In this document: positions 5,557-40,634 of the stretch, piece after piece | Layout of the letters: each line of letters begins with the position of its first letter | Numbering within the stretch: the stretch's first letter is position 1 | Source of the DNA: a virus | Taxonomy: Duplodnaviria > Caudoviricetes | IMG/VR virus record: IMGVR_UViG_3300026159_000398 | Reading direction: 5' to 3' (one strand) | DNA length: 64,000 bases | Made by a program: the position numbers and the translations under genes | Notes under the pieces: model-generated | Told to the model about the DNA's origin: nothing | The model's database searches: none | Seen by the model: the letters and a program-made list of their open reading frames with translations, nothing else

Positions 5557-5704
5557 TTATTTTACTCCTATTGGATTCTCATAGAATTATATTCCAGAAC
5601 TCGAAAAAAAATTAAAAAAAGTCACCAATTTTGGAATATAATTTAATAGGGCAATCCCACCATAAAAGTTGGAACACCTGGTCAATCTCACTTAATATAA
5701 TTTC

Positions 5705-6316
5705 ATGAAACAATTAGATCATTATCTTTTAGCGGTTCTTGAAGCAAAGCAAATGAGCTCATTGAATGCTTTAATAGCTAAGATTAACTCTGGAAAGCCT
5801 GTGTATATTTTACTATCTGGTGGATTTGGCGCAGGCAAATCTCATGTAATCGAGAAAGTCCTTGGTATTCCTAAAACTGACATCGTAGATATCGATGAGA
5901 TTAAAGTGTCACAGAATCTTAGTGTGCCAAAAGCAATCAATGAAATGAGAAAAATTCTGCAAGAGCGCATGACAAAGAAGCAAAACATCATTCAACAAGG
6001 AACCAGCGCCAATCTGCAATTAACTAAAAATAAAATTATCCTTGCCAAAAAAGCTGGTTATGTGACTATTTTGTTTCGAATCGAACGTGATGTTGATGAG
6101 CAAGTTACCTCTTTATTTAAAAGAGGTGAAGAGACTGGTCGTGGTTATGAAAAGGACGATCCTTCGAAGCCAATGGAAGAGCGCATTAAAGCAGCAAAAA
6201 GTACTGTTGAATTTAAAAATCAAAAATCTCTTGAGGTTTTTGAAGCATTGAAAGATTTGCCAGAATTGGATTATGTTCTCACATATAATACGACCACTGG
6301 TAAGGTAAGTGTATGA
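5705..6316 (+). CDS. P-loop kinase (zeta toxin/AAA_33-like), probably virion-associated
   Basis: LSGGFGAGKSH Walker A, DIDEIK, IIQQGTS; N-terminal ..VLEA propeptide-like segment. Confidence 0.75.
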   Translation: MKQLDHYLLAVLEAKQMSSLNALIAKINSGKPVYILLSGGFGAGKSHVIEKVLGIPKTDIVDIDEIKVSQNLSVPKAINEMRKILQERMTKKQNIIQQGTSANLQLTKNKIILAKKAGYVTILFRIERDVDEQVTSLFKRGEETGRGYEKDDPSKPMEERIKAAKSTVEFKNQKSLEVFEALKDLPELDYVLTYNTTTGKVSV

Positions 6317-21698: not shown

Positions 21699-22209
21699 AT
21701 CTTTTTGTTTAAGTGTAATTGTATTTCTTCGTCAATCAACTTCTCAAATGCATCATCTTCGAGTGCATGCATTTTATCAGGGTTCATGGCGATTTGGTAA
21801 AGGATATTGTAAATCATTTGACCAAAACGAAGATCGGGGTATGTCTTCCATAAACCACGAAGCTTTCCGATAATTCTGTCGATTCTGTCAATGTCTCTCA
21901 TTTGTAACCTTTTTTAATACACTCTTCAATTTCTTTTTCGGACCACATTTTACGTTTGGCCCATGCACCAGCCTTTTTGATTTTGATGTTCAAAACAGGT
22001 TGATGATTGTCTTGAACTAATTTGAAGAACCACCAATAAAGTTTTTCTTCGTCTTTTGTGGATGTCATACAAAAATCGTATCCTAAATACTGAGGACCAC
22101 CAGCTCTCATGTCAACAATATCATTACGCTCGCAGTCAATAGTGATCTCGAATACGTTTTTTGCCATGATGTTCACCACCATCTTTAGAGTTGTGACTCA
22201 CTCTTGATG

Positions 22210-22555
22210 TGGACCCGCGGAGAGTCGAACTCCGGTCTTACATAAATACAACTAATGTTGAATTACAAGCTTTTTTCATTTTTCTATCTTTGGTAGTGCA
22301 CCATAAAATGAATAAACGCGTAGCACCTAACATGTTTTTGTTTCAGTTGAAAGCCAACACCCAAATTGAATTCAATCAACCTATCCTCTAAATGAAGGTG
22401 ATCAGTAGTCGAGGAATCTATCTGACACCATGTTGCTTAGTTATTAAGCAGCGAGTTGTTCTTCAGCATTTAACTGTTTTGCCCCGTTTAACCACTCTGA
22501 GCAAGTGGGCTTGCACCATTAACTTTACCTCTGCAATCGAAACCAGTTCGGGCCC
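22210..22555 (-). ncRNA. ssrA: tmRNA, tag (A)AEEQLAA
   Basis: 5' GGGCCCGAACUGGUUUCGA; 3' T-arm and CGGGUCC-A with G3:U wobble; internal GCU GAA GAA CAA CUC GCU GCU UAA UAA. Confidence 0.93.
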
Positions 22556-23278
22556 TCAGGTTCTTAATTCTTTAATATCTTTTTCAGTGATAACAATAAA
22601 CTTATCACCTAAAATTTTTTTTGCAGCTTTAAATTTTGCTTTATTAACAGGATTTTTGACAGCAAAACTTGCTTTTATTTCTACTATTACATCTGTTTCA
22701 GGCAAATAAAAATCAGGGTAATAATAATGTTTTTGATTTTTAAAAAAATATAAAATTCTATGTTCTTTTGTGTCGGCTTTTTGAAATAAAATATTATTTT
22801 GTTCTAAAAATTTCATGTAATTTAATTCATAATTAGATTGATAAATAAAATCTTTATAAATACCTTGTTTTCCTCTGCCATTAACATTTTTATTTTTAGG
22901 ACTCCATGCATCTCTTGCTTTGGCGCGTTCAGTTTCGTTTTGATATCTTTTAGTTTGTGCTTCACTCATTTTCTTTTTAGCTATTTCTGAATGTGTTTTA
23001 CCTAATCTGATAGTATTATTTTTCATTATTTTGCTATAACGTTTTCGTTCTTTTGGATTATTGAATCTAACTTTTTGTGATTCGCTAATACTTCTTAAAC
23101 TAATATTGTTTGCTTTTAATACTCTTCGGATACATGTATCAGAACATCCAAACAATTTAGCAATTTGTCTAGGAATTTGTTTTTCATGGACATACAATCG
23201 TATAATCTCATTTTGTTGTTCAGAAGTAAACTTAATCATGGTTTTATGCTTCTTTGAAGTCTTGACATCCATCTGCAT
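22556..23278 (-). CDS. HTH/NUMOD3 + PD-(D/E)xK homing endonuclease
   Basis: YYPDFYL..VEIK; stop codon abuts tmRNA +1. Confidence 0.85.
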   Translation of the reverse strand: MQMDVKTSKKHKTMIKFTSEQQNEIIRLYVHEKQIPRQIAKLFGCSDTCIRRVLKANNISLRSISESQKVRFNNPKERKRYSKIMKNNTIRLGKTHSEIAKKKMSEAQTKRYQNETERAKARDAWSPKNKNVNGRGKQGIYKDFIYQSNYELNYMKFLEQNNILFQKADTKEHRILYFFKNQKHYYYPDFYLPETDVIVEIKASFAVKNPVNKAKFKAAKKILGDKFIVITEKDIKELRT

Positions 23279-23456
23279 TTCGTGGCATCATAATCATTGC
23301 ACCATATTTTTCAGACAATTTGGTACAAACAATATGTTGACCGAGAATTATCAATTTGAAAGCATCTTTATTCATCGAAGGAAATAAAGTATGTAGTTCA
23401 ACAATGGGAATATCTCCACCTCTGACACAAAATTCGCAGTTATGCATAATTCCTCC

Positions 23457-23534
23457 AAAAAAAATACCGTGGAGACCAAGCAAAAATCTTTTTAAAACCC
23501 GCCTATCTCCACCAGCTTGATTCTCCACGGTATT
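23457..23534 (-). ncRNA. Candidate ~75-nt hairpin RNA or attenuator
   Basis: ~19-bp stem AAUACCGUGGAGAAUCAAGC/GCUUGGUCUCCACGGUAUU plus U-tract, right after an AATATAATT promoter. Confidence 0.5.
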
Positions 23535-23707
23535 AACTTATATAATTATATTACGTCATTCACTGCTTTGTTTAGATTTTTTATGCGCATCATCCGGAAT
23601 TTTTTCGTCCCATGATAAGCAACTATAAATTCCGTTTTCTGGCGCTTTACAGAAATGACATTCTGCTTCAGAAAGAACGATCTGCTTACTTTTTTTACAG
23701 TAACCTA

Positions 23708-25324
23708 TCATATCTTTCCAGCAACAAATTCACTTATTACTCGAGGCGCATTTGCATCAAATCCTACGATGTCCAACATTCCAGCATCATTTGGGTCAGC
23801 AATTGAGAATCCATTACTGTTCATACCCACAACGATCAGACGAGCATCATGAACAAATTGGTTACGGTATTGTTTCAATGCTTGCACAGGTTGAATATTT
23901 CCAGCCCATGTTTCATTGTCTGTGTAGACGATGAAAGCATCAAACATATATTTCTTTTCTTTTGCCCAAATCATTGGCAATGCGCAATCTGTTCCTCCGA
24001 AATTGACACCATCAACTTTGTTCAAAATGGCTTCAAAACTCATGTTTGGAGTAATGTCAAGTTTTTGGAATCTGTTGTTGAAAGCCATGATTGTGTATTC
24101 TTTTTCAACACGAGCAGTTACCATAGCCATCAATGCTGAACATTCAGCACATGTTAAAATTCCACTTGAAATTTCAGAACTCATAGAGCCTGATACGTCT
24201 ATTCCAAGAAGCATTCTTTTTCCAGAAGGCTCAATTGTTTTGAAGCTCAAGTAAAACGCTTGTTCAAGAGCATCAACAATTTTTCGCACTGGAGTCCATG
24301 TCAAGTTGCCTCTGAAGCCACGACCCATGCTATAAGTTTTTTGAGCGAGAAGAATATCCATAGGGTGAATACGGCTTTTCTTTAGATACGCTTCATCTGT
24401 GATTTTACTTACGACCATGCTCACGTATTCATTTTGGCCACTATCAAGAACTCCAATAGAAGTCAGACGATTCAAGTTGCGAATGAGAGCCTTCAGAGGA
24501 ATATCTTTCAAAGCTGCTTTCCATACTGCGACATTGTTTTTTATCTCAGTTGGCCATGCATCTTGAGGAATCTTGTGCTCAGCGATCAATTCAATAGAAC
24601 GCTTGACATCTTCTGCACGAAGAGACTTCAATTCTTCGGTTGCATAAACCAAAGGAAGATCTTCTGTAAACTCGTTCTTTACGGCATACTTAAACAACTG
24701 TGCGTGCACAGGAGTCATAGGTTTGACGTGTGCAGAACGCAGAATATCTTTGTGTGTCCATTGGTTCTCTGTTCCTTGAACAGTACGGCCTGCATATTTG
24801 ATCATTTGATATTCAAGTTTTGTTGGGTCCATTGAATACCAGTTGCCAAATGCGTTACGAATGGCACGTCCCCAGCTTCTCAGATCGTCAATGTACTGGG
24901 CAAATGTAAACATGTGTGTTCCAGTACGGCAAATCTCAGGGAACATTCTCGATGCCGCATGTTTGATTATCTTGTCGTCTGTTTCTGAAAACAAAACTGC
25001 AAGCAGCATAATTGCTGGGTCATTCTTGTGTGCACGGCCTTCGACAGAAATATTGTACAGCATTGTAAGAACTTTTCCTGCATCTTCCTTAATGCAAGCA
25101 ATGCTGTTCTTGATATTCTCTTTTGTCAGTTTGTTTTCACGTATGTAGTAAGTGCCGCCCTCACTTCCGAGAATCAGGAATCTTTCAAGACGTTTCCATT
25201 TGTCAAGTGCAAATGAGAATCCACCGGCTGAGTTGGCAACCATGTCTGCCTCACGACCTGGTATAGGTTTTGATTGAGGAGTAACAGTTTTCTTTGCTTG
25301 ACTGTTTGTGTAGTTGTGTGCCAT
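23708..25324 (-). CDS. rsr: Ro60/TROVE domain RNA-binding protein
   Basis: NSAGG, RFLILGSEGGTYY, W.HKDILR..H; vWA DVSGSM, GGTDC.LPM and YTDNETW. Confidence 0.96.
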   Translation of the reverse strand: MAHNYTNSQAKKTVTPQSKPIPGREADMVANSAGGFSFALDKWKRLERFLILGSEGGTYYIRENKLTKENIKNSIACIKEDAGKVLTMLYNISVEGRAHKNDPAIMLLAVLFSETDDKIIKHAASRMFPEICRTGTHMFTFAQYIDDLRSWGRAIRNAFGNWYSMDPTKLEYQMIKYAGRTVQGTENQWTHKDILRSAHVKPMTPVHAQLFKYAVKNEFTEDLPLVYATEELKSLRAEDVKRSIELIAEHKIPQDAWPTEIKNNVAVWKAALKDIPLKALIRNLNRLTSIGVLDSGQNEYVSMVVSKITDEAYLKKSRIHPMDILLAQKTYSMGRGFRGNLTWTPVRKIVDALEQAFYLSFKTIEPSGKRMLLGIDVSGSMSSEISSGILTCAECSALMAMVTARVEKEYTIMAFNNRFQKLDITPNMSFEAILNKVDGVNFGGTDCALPMIWAKEKKYMFDAFIVYTDNETWAGNIQPVQALKQYRNQFVHDARLIVVGMNSNGFSIADPNDAGMLDIVGFDANAPRVISEFVAGKI

Positions 25325-25354
25325 TTTATATCTCCATTTAGATTATTTGCGACC

Positions 25355-25392
25355 AAAAAAAACCACCCGTATCATCATTTGGTACGGGTGGT
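25355..25392 (-). terminator. Intrinsic terminator (attenuator) 30 nt upstream of Ro60
   Basis: ACCACCCGUA/UACGGGUGGU 10-bp stem followed by a U run. Confidence 0.85.
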
Positions 25393-25459
25393 CTTGTGGT
25401 TGGTTCGTAGCTTCAAAGATTTTACCTCCTCGCTAGGAACCATCATACAATAGGTATCT

Positions 25460-25511
25460 GATAACGCTTATCCCCCGTACCTTTTAAATAAGGTCAAATT
25501 TTTGGAAAGCG
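25460..25511 (-). promoter_or_regulatory. Circularly permuted Y-RNA-like Ro-binding helix in the Ro60 leader
   Basis: CGCUUUCC..UUGACCUU-loop-AAGGUACGG..GGAUAAGCG-UUAUC: the two strands of the Y RNA at 25611 in swapped order. Confidence 0.7.
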
Positions 25512-25610
25512 ATATTGCTCTCTATTGAGAGCAGCGATTTTTAAAACCGTTAAGTCATAAAAATCTCCTGTAAAAATAAGTTCGTTGAGACTAGTAACTA
25601 ATAAAAAATT

Positions 25611-25699
25611 GATCGGTCAAGTTGATGGATTGGGAGAGTGGCACATGGCCACGATACACACCAAAAGTTTGTAGATAACCCAAGTCCTTCCGTACCGTC
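25611..25699 (-). ncRNA. Y RNA
   Basis: 5' GACGGUACGGAAGGACUUGGGUUAUCU..CCCAAUCCAUCAACUUGACCGAUC 3'; paired ends with bulged helix, follows promoter, upstream of Ro60. Confidence 0.82.
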
Positions 25700-25728
25700 T
25701 AAACTATATAGAATTATATTACATGCGA

Positions 25729-26214
25729 CTATTTTTTTATAGGTTTTTTTTCTTTTTTTGCCACTTTTTTCTTGCGTGCGGCTTTAACTTCTGCTAATCT
25801 TTCGTCTTCTTTTTCTTGAAAAGCTTTCTGCAGTGCTATAGATTGTTCGTGATGGATTTTGGTATTGACATTCATTGTTGCCATAAGCCAATTTTTACGG
25901 AGCCATCTTATAAGTTCAACAATTGGAAGAGATGTAATTCCTGCGACAACTATATCAGAACCACCAATAACCCAATACATTTCATTGACGGTTTTGAATG
26001 TCACGAATCCTGAAAAAATCCATCCAATCATATTAACATGAAGCCACCCAATACAAAATACAACTCCAGCAAATATACACATTATCGCTACTGAAATGGC
26101 TATTATCAATAAAAACCCCGCAAGACATCGTGGTCCTGTGAATAAAGCATGTTTAAGTTCTTCTCTTTTCAGTCGAAAGAATTCTTTCCAGATCATTTTA
26201 AGTTTATTATCCAT
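25729..26214 (-). CDS. Membrane protein
   Basis: Long hydrophobic stretches, basic tail. Confidence 0.65.
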   Translation of the reverse strand: MDNKLKMIWKEFFRLKREELKHALFTGPRCLAGFLLIIAISVAIMCIFAGVVFCIGWLHVNMIGWIFSGFVTFKTVNEMYWVIGGSDIVVAGITSLPIVELIRWLRKNWLMATMNVNTKIHHEQSIALQKAFQEKEDERLAEVKAARKKKVAKKEKKPIKK

Positions 26215-26216
26215 AT

Positions 26217-26453
26217 TTATTTCCTTACCATTACTTTACAATTTCTCATTATCGATGTAGAAAAACAATATGTTTTTGAATAATCTGTATTTTGGCGACA
26301 AATTGTTGATTCTTTGATTGCAACTTTGTATTCTTGTTCTGAACATTTATATTCTTCAAGAGCATAGTTGTAATTTGTTCCAACTTCATGTCCCAGACAA
26401 CCAACAAAAAATAGTAAACAAATAAACAATAGTGCTTTTTTCATTACTTCCAC
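26217..26453 (-). CDS. Putative lipoprotein
   Basis: MKKALLFICLLFFVGC. Confidence 0.55.
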   Translation of the reverse strand: MEVMKKALLFICLLFFVGCLGHEVGTNYNYALEEYKCSEQEYKVAIKESTICRQNTDYSKTYCFSTSIMRNCKVMVRK

Positions 26454-27577
26454 CTTTTCATTTTTGACGATATTGGCGAATGGCTTATAAATACATCAAC
26501 AATCTTGAATTTCCTTTTGAGAGTGAAAAAAATCCATGATACAAATTGATCTTCATCATCAAAATAGATTATTTCACCATCGTGTATAAGCCGCCATTCA
26601 TTCTCAATGCAATCAAGGCATGTAATTACCAGATTGAAAGGAACATTTCGTAAATAAGCATCTTTATAAATGCCATATTCAAGCCAATCATAATCAAGAA
26701 GCCCTACTCTGAATTTACCTTGCGGCGAATCATCAAAGTTTTGTTCAAACGGATTTGGCTTGATATTATGAGGAATATGTTCAGTTGGGTGCGGACCATT
26801 TCCATGACGAGTATGGTACGCTCGAGTGACAATCCAAGGAAAAGGCGTATATTGAACAAAATTCCTGCTTCCTGTGTTGGAAGGAGTCACATGCGGAAAA
26901 AATCCATTATGTTGGTCAAGAAGCAATCCTTGGGAGCCTTCATAAATAAGACTTTTGAATTCTTTGCCTTTTCTATCTTTTGTAAGATTGTCAGGTGCCA
27001 TTTTTACAAAAGGATTATTCGTAATAATGAAGCTTGCGTTCAGAAAATTCTTCACATATTCAGTATCATATTCGCATTTATAGTGTTTAGCAATAAGCTT
27101 CAATTTTTCATGAAGAACAGATTGATAAAATAAATCTTCAAATTTTAGATGATAAAAGTTTTCTTCACGACGGTATGTCGCGTTGATTCCAAGCCCGCAA
27201 CTTCCATGAGCATTTTGGCTTTCTGCTATTCTGCCAGCTCCAATATCGTATGGAGTTGTCACAGGACAGCGGCGATCAATGTAGAGTTCGGGTTCAATGC
27301 CCATTTTCATGAGCATATCAAGTTCGACTAAAAGAGCTACGGGGTCAATGGTACACTCAGGGAACCAATAAGTCGGAATTCCTCTGAGTGTACCACTGCC
27401 GAAACTTGAGAACACATGGCTAGTTTTTTCATCTACAACAACTTGATGACCTGCCTGTTGGCCTCCGCAGTAACGTACCACAAGCGGGCGTTTTAATTTC
27501 TGACAAAGGTAGTCAACAACCATACCTTTCCCTTCATCACCAAAACCTGCGCCAATTACTGCGTTGCTAACATTCAT
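26444..27577 (-). CDS. purA: Adenylosuccinate synthetase-like protein
   Basis: GFGDEGKG, GGQQAGH, HGSCG.G, EGSQGLLLD and TRHGNGP. Confidence 0.88.
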   Translation of the reverse strand: MNVSNAVIGAGFGDEGKGMVVDYLCQKLKRPLVVRYCGGQQAGHQVVVDEKTSHVFSSFGSGTLRGIPTYWFPECTIDPVALLVELDMLMKMGIEPELYIDRRCPVTTPYDIGAGRIAESQNAHGSCGLGINATYRREENFYHLKFEDLFYQSVLHEKLKLIAKHYKCEYDTEYVKNFLNASFIITNNPFVKMAPDNLTKDRKGKEFKSLIYEGSQGLLLDQHNGFFPHVTPSNTGSRNFVQYTPFPWIVTRAYHTRHGNGPHPTEHIPHNIKPNPFEQNFDDSPQGKFRVGLLDYDWLEYGIYKDAYLRNVPFNLVITCLDCIENEWRLIHDGEIIYFDDEDQFVSWIFFTLKRKFKIVDVFISHSPISSKMKRWK

Positions 27578-40026: not shown

Positions 40027-40106
40027 TAGCCCACCCCAGATTCGAACTGGGACGCCGAAGCACAGGGTCTAGACCTGCTAGATAGACCAGATTCTCTTAG
40101 TGGGCC
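40027..40106 (-). tRNA. tRNA-Leu(UAG), C33
   Basis: Variable arm, loop UC-UAG-AC. Confidence 0.85.
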
Positions 40107-40510: not shown

Positions 40511-40634
40511 CGTACTGGCGATAGGAATCGAACCTATACCGTCATCTTTTAAGGGTGATAATCAATCTCTGTCCGTACCAGTTTGGTCTAATGTGTAGAA
40601 ATTGAGTTTTACGCTTTACCAAAAGCGCCAGTAC
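40511..40634 (-). ncRNA. tRNA-mimicking Y RNA (YrlA-like, ends in acceptor stem)
   Basis: GUACUGG/CCAGUAC acceptor, D-like arm, AUAGG-UUCGAUU-CCUAU T-arm; anticodon arm replaced by UAGACCA-AAC-UGGUACGG..GAUUAUC Ro-type helix. Confidence 0.78.

Follow-up and report, generated by a model that had tools for sequence, protein, structure and literature searches.

A strand-swapped Y-RNA helix facing a terminator in the Ro60 leader of a phage: a possible Ro60-sensing attenuator

We report here that the leader of the Ro60 gene in a 64,000-nt stretch of phage DNA (IMG/VR record IMGVR_UViG_3300026159_000398; hereafter the window) holds a degenerate, tRNA-derived and permuted Y-RNA module, and that one strand of this module is complementary to the 5' arm of an intrinsic terminator lying just ahead of the gene. 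Given the conserved anatomy of this leader, the near-equal energies of its competing folds and the recurrence of such pairing in L036 and L169, two unrelated lineages of Ro60 phages, a Ro60-sensing attenuator is plausible but unproven, and we put its chances somewhat short of even.

Ro60 is encoded on the minus strand (ORF 23708-25324) as a full-length protein of 538 aa with TROVE and vWA_Ro60 domains (Pfam TROVE, 8e-34; vWA_Ro60, 3e-68), and the coordinates of all leader features refer to that strand. The window is part of a large phage genome, in which 27 tRNA genes and a tmRNA were counted, and most of it was found in one sequencing run only, from an anaerobic-digester metagenome. The tmRNA (22207-22555, minus strand, 101 bits) lies about 1.2 kb downstream of Ro60, and in the relative L004 a tmRNA (5671-6011) is also near the Ro60 locus; Ro60, Y RNAs, tRNAs and tmRNA therefore form one RNA-centred island. 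Both sequences also contain a possible amber suppressor, a tRNA with anticodon CUA labelled Pyl by ARAGORN (window 40027-40106, minus strand; L004 1358-1430), which hints at TAG read-through or recoding.

The leader (Table 1) covers about 380 nt from a -10-like box to the Ro60 start and as a whole folds far better than its shuffled versions (z = -4.2). Boxes similar to TAATATAAT are also present in L003 and L004, and we regard this box as the putative promoter of the leader; a consensus promoter scan of the minus strand of the Ro60 leader returned no -35/-10 pair and no -35 element for it. Nematode stem-bulge RNAs are homologues of Y RNAs, and their Rfam model (RF01656) matched the first Y RNA at 26.7 bits (E = 0.024), which is below the gathering score. 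A Shine-Dalgarno (SD) sequence with a tiny ORF is found at a like position in all five relatives, where 2-6 codons specify unconserved peptides (MT*, MKT*, MDVKFH*, MKKL* and MYKT*). The P1 hairpin covaries fully, relatives carrying the compensatory versions GCCC/GGGC, GCGUUU/AAACGC and GUGGCA/UGCCAC (four versions in all). It occupies the D-arm place of the tRNA-Y chimeras described below, retains GCUC..GAGCA and is probably a former tRNA D arm. The stem of P4 differs in sequence yet pairs in L001, L002 and L003; in a related contig C25437-G25406 is replaced by G-C and the C.C mismatch 25436/25407 by U-A, both compensatory, and four of the five relatives share the loop motif GAGGUAAAA(U)CUUG. 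A third tiny frame, AUG GAG AUA UAA (25326-25337, minus strand), contains the Ro60 SD, and a single base separates its end from the Ro60 AUG; L001 and L002 share this frame, which is missing from L003.

Table 1. Positions of the leader elements and of the tRNA-shaped RNAs that carry the permuted module (window coordinates unless a relative is named).
Feature	Positions	Strand	Remarks
-10-like box TAATATAAT (putative promoter)	25711-25722	-	5' of first Y RNA; invariant in window, L001, L002
Canonical-topology Y RNA	25610-25702	-	5' CGGUACGG..GGGUUAUC ... UUGACCG 3'; kept in L001, L002
Shine-Dalgarno GGAG + mini-ORF AUG ACU UAA	25550-25568	-	Between first Y RNA and P1
P1 hairpin GCUCUC-AAUA-GAGAGC	25516-25533	-	Covaries across relatives
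Permuted Y module	25460-25511	-	Outer stem CGCUUUCC/GGGAUAAGCG; inner bulged stem UUGACCUU/AAGGU-A-CGG; loop; GUUAUC
P4 hairpin GGUUCCUAGC ... GCUACGAACC	25402-25441	-	Loop holds GGAGGU-N7-UUG
Short ORF (predicted), UUG start	25375-25416	-	13 codons, UGA stop within terminator loop; spans terminator 5' arm
Intrinsic terminator	25355-25392	-	10-bp G+C-rich stem, 11-nt loop, U run
Terminator 5' arm + two loop bases CCACCCGUACC	25381-25391	-	Can pair with GGUACGGGGG (25481-25472) as antiterminator
tRNA-shaped RNA with permuted Y module	40511-40634	-	Window tRNA array, between two tRNA-Gly genes
Chimera sites	L005 2154-2408; L006 2064-2398; L007 449-704, 2218-2341; L004 4801-5039, 5313-5362
Chimera sites	L168 1560-1900; L028 1142-1265; L140 1122-1375; L036 about 320-405

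The closest Ro60 proteins come from metagenome contigs (L002 and L001, 86% identity each; L003, 68%; L004, 67%), and our clade sample consists of the window and these four, the next-closest proteins (P0004, P0007, P0011 and P0016) being left out. L001-L004 keep the permuted module nearly letter for letter, with U-A to G.U or A-U changes in the inner stem. The module is also unchanged in contigs of related strains, near-identical variants that are informative for P4 and not for the switch. This conservation, together with the covariation of P1 and P4, indicates that the leader is a structured, selected RNA. A single-protein search of IMG/VR with Ro60 gave nothing close, and cultured phages gave matches only in Streptomyces phages and there only inside the Ro60 gene. 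Jay2Jay was discarded as a leader comparison, as its Ro-like gene directly abuts the preceding gene and thus has no leader.

Read on the minus strand, the module runs CGCUUUCC (25511-25504), AAAAAU (25503-25498), UUGACCUU (25497-25490), the loop AUUUAA (25489-25484), AAGGUACGG (25483-25475), GGGAUAAGCG (25474-25465) and UUAUC (25464-25460). The half of the Y stem that is normally 3' comes first and, after the 6-nt closing loop, is followed by the half that is normally 5', with the bulged A and GUUAUC retained; the module is a true circular permutation of the stem of the neighbouring Y RNA (25702-25610). It therefore departs from a Y RNA in that its helix is not made from the 5' and 3' ends of the RNA, the strands being swapped and closed by the loop at 25489-25484. 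It agrees with one in its position next to Ro60, the element, terminator included, stopping 30 nt ahead of the start, and in its bulged helix, which shares the UUGACC and GGU-A-CGG strands, the bulged A and GUUAUC with the phage's own Y RNA. When 15 homologous modules were aligned, 95.7% of the cells were paired (36-59% in slide controls), the covariation score was 0.477 against 0.239 for shuffles (reached by none of 500), and A-U to G-C and C-G to A-U changes were seen inside the Ro-binding stem. A covariance model, R1, also placed the leader module among the top scores of the family (58.7 bits), a score owed to the presence of the window element in the training set of R1, so that the independent evidence is the 15-module alignment. 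The permuted helix is thus a real structure under selection, with homologues in the Ro-binding stem of the phage's own Y RNAs and in the anticodon-arm modules of the tRNA-Y chimeras. No Rfam family covers the module, overlaps being at chance level; the YrlA model (RF02553) had no match at E<=10 in 22000-27000 and the Rfam tRNA model none in 25340-25600. On inspection of the alignment we saw no acceptor or T-arm pairing around the module, and the D-arm-like hairpin is all that remains of a tRNA body. Exact-pattern scans for the module in IMG/VR and JGI metagenomes found nothing. R1 matches in L050 were rejected as permuted modules, since they proved to be junctions of tandem canonical Y RNAs.

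In L005, L006, L007 and L168, which are Ro60 phages at 57-60% identity, the same module takes the place of the anticodon arm in tRNA-shaped RNAs that are complete in acceptor stem, D arm and T arm. The Rfam tRNA model scores those of L005-L007 at 45-58 bits, about 50 nt being inserted relative to it. L004 has such tRNA-Y chimeras downstream of Ro60, and R1 finds further ones in L140 and in L028, the latter with the bacterial GCCGAA motif and an encoded 3' CCA; Ro60-encoding phages from several clades commonly have them, often in tandem. The window has one within its tRNA array. Its acceptor stem is joined by a short D-like arm and by GGUUCGAUUCC as T arm, and where a tRNA would have its anticodon arm it carries a permuted Y module, UUAGACCA-AAC-UGGUACGG ... 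GAUUAUC. It contains the best R1 match of the tRNA island (40607-40555, 15.2 bits) and is not called by ARAGORN or Rfam. The leader copy shares with the chimeras the outer stem, the internal loop, UUGACC-loop-GGUACG, the bulged A, GUUAUC and a D-arm-like hairpin upstream; unlike them it has neither acceptor stem nor T arm, has on its 3' side a hairpin with an SD-like loop and then a terminator, and lies directly before Ro60.

Y RNAs and YrlA (RF02553; PMC4201824; 10.1101/312249) have in common with the leader copy a location next to Ro60 and the bulged Ro-binding helix with the GUUAUC of phage Y RNAs, but theirs is a helix made from the 5' and 3' ends, whereas that of the leader is closed by a loop and has its open ends on the other side. 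YrlA links the Ro-binding helix to a tRNA-like body, of which the leader copy lacks the T arm and the acceptor stem. In strand order the chimeras are YrlA returned to the normal order of a tRNA. The YrlA order is the only one in the accounts of Chen et al. (2014, PMC4201824) and Wang et al. (2018, 10.1101/312249), the latter authors speculating that more tRNA-like forms might exist; our literature search found no paper describing tRNA-Y chimeras or a permuted Y module.

The terminator is formed by ACCACCCGUA (25392-25383) and UACGGGUGGU (25371-25362), with a run of 7-8 U to 25355, and is a G+C-rich hairpin with a U run, as expected of intrinsic terminators. The consensus scan reports this hairpin on the plus strand only, and the minus-strand call, like that of the promoter box, is based on the sequence itself; a hairpin plus U-run scan located homologous terminators 32-37 nt before Ro60 in L001, L002 and L003. 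The only route into Ro60 leads through the terminator; no promoter lies in the 30 nt from there to the Ro60 AUG (25324). The 5' arm of this hairpin contains CCCGUACC, the complement of GGUACGGG in the helix strand, and these are the sole two copies of that 8-mer in 64 kb (GGTACGGG: one per strand, 93 nt apart; 0.21 expected, and two copies reached in 1 of 100 shuffles). The duplex of the helix strand with the downstream leader reaches -19.5 kcal/mol, whereas shuffled sequences average -12.4 (p about 0.008 in the window, about 0.01 in L002 and 0.002 in L001), while that of L003 alone is not significant (p 0.08-0.23).

Across the five relatives, 44 of the 47 cells of the ten antiterminator pairs are paired, compared with 14-22 when the strands are slid. 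In L003 a G to A change in the helix strand is matched by a C-G to U-A change in the terminator, which turns the antiterminator pair from G-C into A-U, so that helix, terminator and antiterminator all remain intact. In L001 a terminator pair is weakened from U-A to U.G and CCCGUACC is retained. The antiterminator further extends two bases into the terminator loop, bases of which the terminator itself has no need. L004 retains the module together with an unrelated terminator that lacks complementarity to the helix strand, and we found no significant alternative pairing there for either the helix strand or the terminator arm; four more Y RNAs follow the module before Ro60. With about three independent clade sequences carrying the pairing, covariation of the antiterminator therefore rests on the one double change in L003. 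The initial annotation had described the swapped Y helix, the terminator 30 nt before Ro60, the exact 8-bp complement between helix strand and terminator 5' arm (10 bp with a bulged A) and the resulting competition of helix plus terminator with an antiterminator. Its letters and coordinates are exact and its account of the duplex correct; the anatomy it saw goes beyond chance, and the competing pairing recurs in four of the five relatives, with mutually exclusive folds of comparable stability.

Alone, the permuted helix is predicted at -11.7 kcal/mol and the terminator at -17.3 kcal/mol, and the antiterminator, which excludes the terminator, is of similar stability. We defined the decision point as the transcript in which the 5' arm of the terminator has emerged and the 3' arm has not. 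At this point, and in the local 5' context, the helix and antiterminator folds of the window are within 1-2 kcal/mol of one another; L001 prefers the antiterminator, by 4-6 kcal/mol, and L003 the helix, by 0.4-2 kcal/mol. In the full-length transcript helix plus terminator is ahead by about 12 kcal/mol, and in a global fold of the window that includes the first Y RNA the helix state leads by 9 kcal/mol, with an equilibrium antiterminator probability of about zero, which argues that termination of the naked RNA may already be efficient. The helix is also the first to fold, and does so locally, so that termination may be the default of protein-free RNA. The calculated energies fit a switch set by a few kcal/mol of protein binding, without demanding one.

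How such a switch might work can be outlined as follows. The leader would first make a canonical Y RNA and then the module, which would correspond to the Ro60-docking arm of a tRNA-shaped Y RNA; being closed by a loop, this arm looks permuted. Its G-rich strand GGUACGGGGG would have two possible partners: the upstream UUGACC strand, giving the Ro-binding helix, and the terminator 5' arm some 90 nt downstream, giving the antiterminator. When Ro60 is plentiful it would bind the nascent helix and keep it closed; the terminator would then form, and the polymerase would halt 30 nt short of the Ro60 start. If Ro60 is in short supply or titrated away, the similarly stable antiterminator would form in a share of the transcripts and the polymerase would enter Ro60. 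The terminated product would itself be a partner RNA of Ro60. We infer, in other words, that Ro60 binds the permuted module and that this binding alters termination. Among the readings considered, the Ro60-sensing attenuator accounts for the largest number of features, namely the sequence-conserved terminator arm, the pairing into the loop, the matching change in L003, the near-equal energies and a signal specific to 5' arms (see below). Among the points that speak against it is that in L005-L007 the module sits in tRNA-shaped RNAs and no terminator precedes Ro60.

In the pyr operon of Bacillus subtilis, PyrR, which is encoded in the operon that it regulates, stabilises an anti-antiterminator hairpin in the leader and thereby lets an intrinsic terminator form. 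The proposed Ro60 leader is closest to this case in logic, as a strand of its hairpin would otherwise form the antiterminator. It would differ in that the protein is Ro60, the sensor hairpin copies the site of a cognate non-coding RNA (the Y-RNA helix) and no small-molecule co-effector is implied, the switch here being proposed from sequence. TRAP on the trp leader and L4 on the S10 leader, the latter regulating its own operon, are also proteins that decide on the nascent leader between terminator and read-through; TRAP, however, binds single-stranded triplet repeats and L4 works with NusA at a pause site, whereas the site proposed here is a bulged helix that mimics a partner RNA. Mimicry is familiar from the operator of Escherichia coli ThrRS, which resembles the anticodon arm of tRNA-Thr, and from ribosomal-protein operators, which resemble rRNA sites, free protein repressing its own synthesis in both. 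As in these, the leader would copy the cognate RNA element of the protein and the cognate RNA would compete for it, but they act on translation initiation and the output proposed here is transcription termination.

A leader that copies the Ro-binding helix and is coupled to a terminator would provide a simple feedback mechanism. If the attenuator reading holds, a prospect just under an even one, the leader would be a case of protein-mediated autogenous attenuation whose sensor was made by mimicry of the protein's partner RNA. It would also mean that a loop-closed, strand-swapped helix suffices for recognition by Ro60, and this would bear on tRNA-shaped Y RNAs and on the origin of YrlA from tRNAs.

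Other Ro60 lineages offer a view independent of the clade. In a wider survey of 239 further Ro60 loci (metagenomes and IMG/VR), in which we looked for strong hairpin plus U-run terminators within 80-100 nt of the Ro60 start, about a dozen independent Ro60-proximal terminators were found. In the first set, 13 strong terminators at distances below 80 nt from Ro60 were scored by comparing the 5' arm, extended by four loop bases, with the upstream 300 nt; complementarity at p<=0.05 was present for 6 of the 13 5' arms and for none of the 3' arms. Strong terminators lie 26-77 nt before Ro60 in L036 (about 590-650), L169 (630-665), L144 (1430-1470) and L068 (1430-1465), and in all four the 5' arms, not the 3' arms, complement upstream Y-RNA stems. 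The terminator 5' arm and loop of L036 form a 12-bp complement of the 5' strand of its Y RNA, GCCGAAG Ro motif included (-24 kcal/mol, reached by none of 300 shuffles), and for the 5' arm of L169 the matching strand is the 3' one of a Y stem (-18.5 kcal/mol, reached by none of 200). At the decision point, with the 3' arm still to come, both have a predicted antiterminator probability of 0.97-0.98. Because their sequences are wholly unlike those of the window, either convergence or very old covariation is implied. No relatives closer than 57% were found for L036 and L144 in our search for covariation.

It may be, and we advance this somewhat more tentatively, that terminators with a 5' arm antisense to the Ro-binding stem of a Y RNA gate Ro60 in several unrelated phage lineages, the stem serving as a co-transcriptional sensor of free Ro60 that keeps protein and partner RNA in balance. 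If so, Ro60 would gain its first described regulatory circuit, a protein-responsive attenuator made from the partner RNA of the protein itself, for which the phage of the window would have used the leftover arm of a tRNA-shaped Y RNA. The initial annotation had named a covariance search of TROVE-gene leaders in phages and bacteria as a check. Its reading of the leader as a Ro60 switch is partly supported: it gains from the recurrence in L036 and L169 and from the near-equal energies, and loses from the missing pairing in L004, from the place of the module in free-standing tRNA-shaped RNAs of other phages and from the conserved ribosome-binding site and short frame over the terminator. It knew of no Ro-responsive attenuator; likewise, our search of the literature found no description of Ro60 autoregulation, or of a matching of Ro60 and Y RNA levels, in any organism.

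A simpler account takes the leader for a unit that makes partner RNAs and ends in a terminator which is constitutive and leaky. Its products would be a canonical Y RNA and a second RNA, permuted, degenerate and derived from a tRNA; partial read-through would fix a high ratio of RNA to Ro60 mRNA, and the complementarity would be a by-product of arms derived from a Y RNA. Indeed, as the module of other phages belongs to free-standing tRNA-shaped RNAs, which lie in tRNA arrays and whose arms are homologous to it, the leader element may simply be a partner RNA followed by a leaky terminator. Y RNAs upstream of and co-transcribed with Ro60 are a known arrangement, in Mycobacterium smegmatis and Deinococcus radiodurans (PMC4201824) as well as in Thermus phage phiLo (PMC12135203). 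L004, with its unrelated terminator and no competing pairing, is in line with this account, as is the preference of the whole-transcript fold for helix plus terminator. Descent is a less even guide: the arms resemble Y strands in the window (GAUACGGGUGG versus GGUACGGGGGA), L169 and L144, and the complementarity could have been inherited from a duplicated Y stem rather than selected, the 3' arm of the terminator resembling the helix strand; but the L036 arm is unlike the 3' strand of its own Y RNA, so descent does not explain the complementarity there. Nor does a leaky terminator sit well with a complementarity that reaches loop bases, follows the change of the helix in L003 and is confined to the 5' arm across lineages, or with a terminator stem whose sequence is better conserved than that of the adjacent P4. 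We consider it unlikely on balance. If the terminator were merely constitutive, the finding would be a new, degenerate member of the Y-RNA family.

Ribosome-coupled attenuation is less probable again, and we regard it as improbable. A ribosome starting from the GGAGGU-N7-UUG of the P4 loop would translate across the 5' arm of the terminator and block the hairpin, and read-through would depend on translation, not on Ro60. Consistent with this, the window, L001, L002 and L003 share SD, spacer and UUG despite a varying flanking stem, and the frame covers the terminator 5' arm wherever the SD-UUG is present; a translating ribosome would therefore block the terminator. The second SD, with its mini-ORF in 5/5 relatives, points the same way. 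Yet neither the length of the peptide, its sequence nor the end of the frame is conserved (13 codons in the window, 21 in L003 and 44 in L001, the latter two reading through the whole terminator), L004 has no SD-UUG, L036 and L169 have no such frame, and the purine-rich P4 loop could instead be an RNA contact. The frame of the window (25416-25375) is a predicted one and its translation putative. Ribosome coupling could also act jointly with the Ro60 switch.

That the long-range pairing serves RNA processing or stability, for instance as the target of a double-strand-specific nuclease that separates the Y RNAs from the Ro60 mRNA, or is fortuitous, is very improbable: Y RNAs upstream of Ro60 are indeed processed from a common precursor in M. 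smegmatis (PMC4201824), but the pairing excludes both the Ro-binding helix and the terminator, a hallmark of attenuators, and the chance expectation is low.

Two further observations concern the Y-RNA arrays of the relatives. Before Ro60, L004 carries five canonical Y-type RNAs and the permuted module in a single intergenic stretch of 750 nt (2260-2980), a T-arm-like GGGUUCGACCCCC occurring in one of these Y-type RNAs. L006 (1750-1920) and L168 (1260-1425) have, upstream of their Y-RNA array, a separate promoter-to-terminator unit with a conserved RNA of about 130 nt, which contains UUCCCGUACAGG, including the complement of GUACGG, the core of the Y 5' strand.
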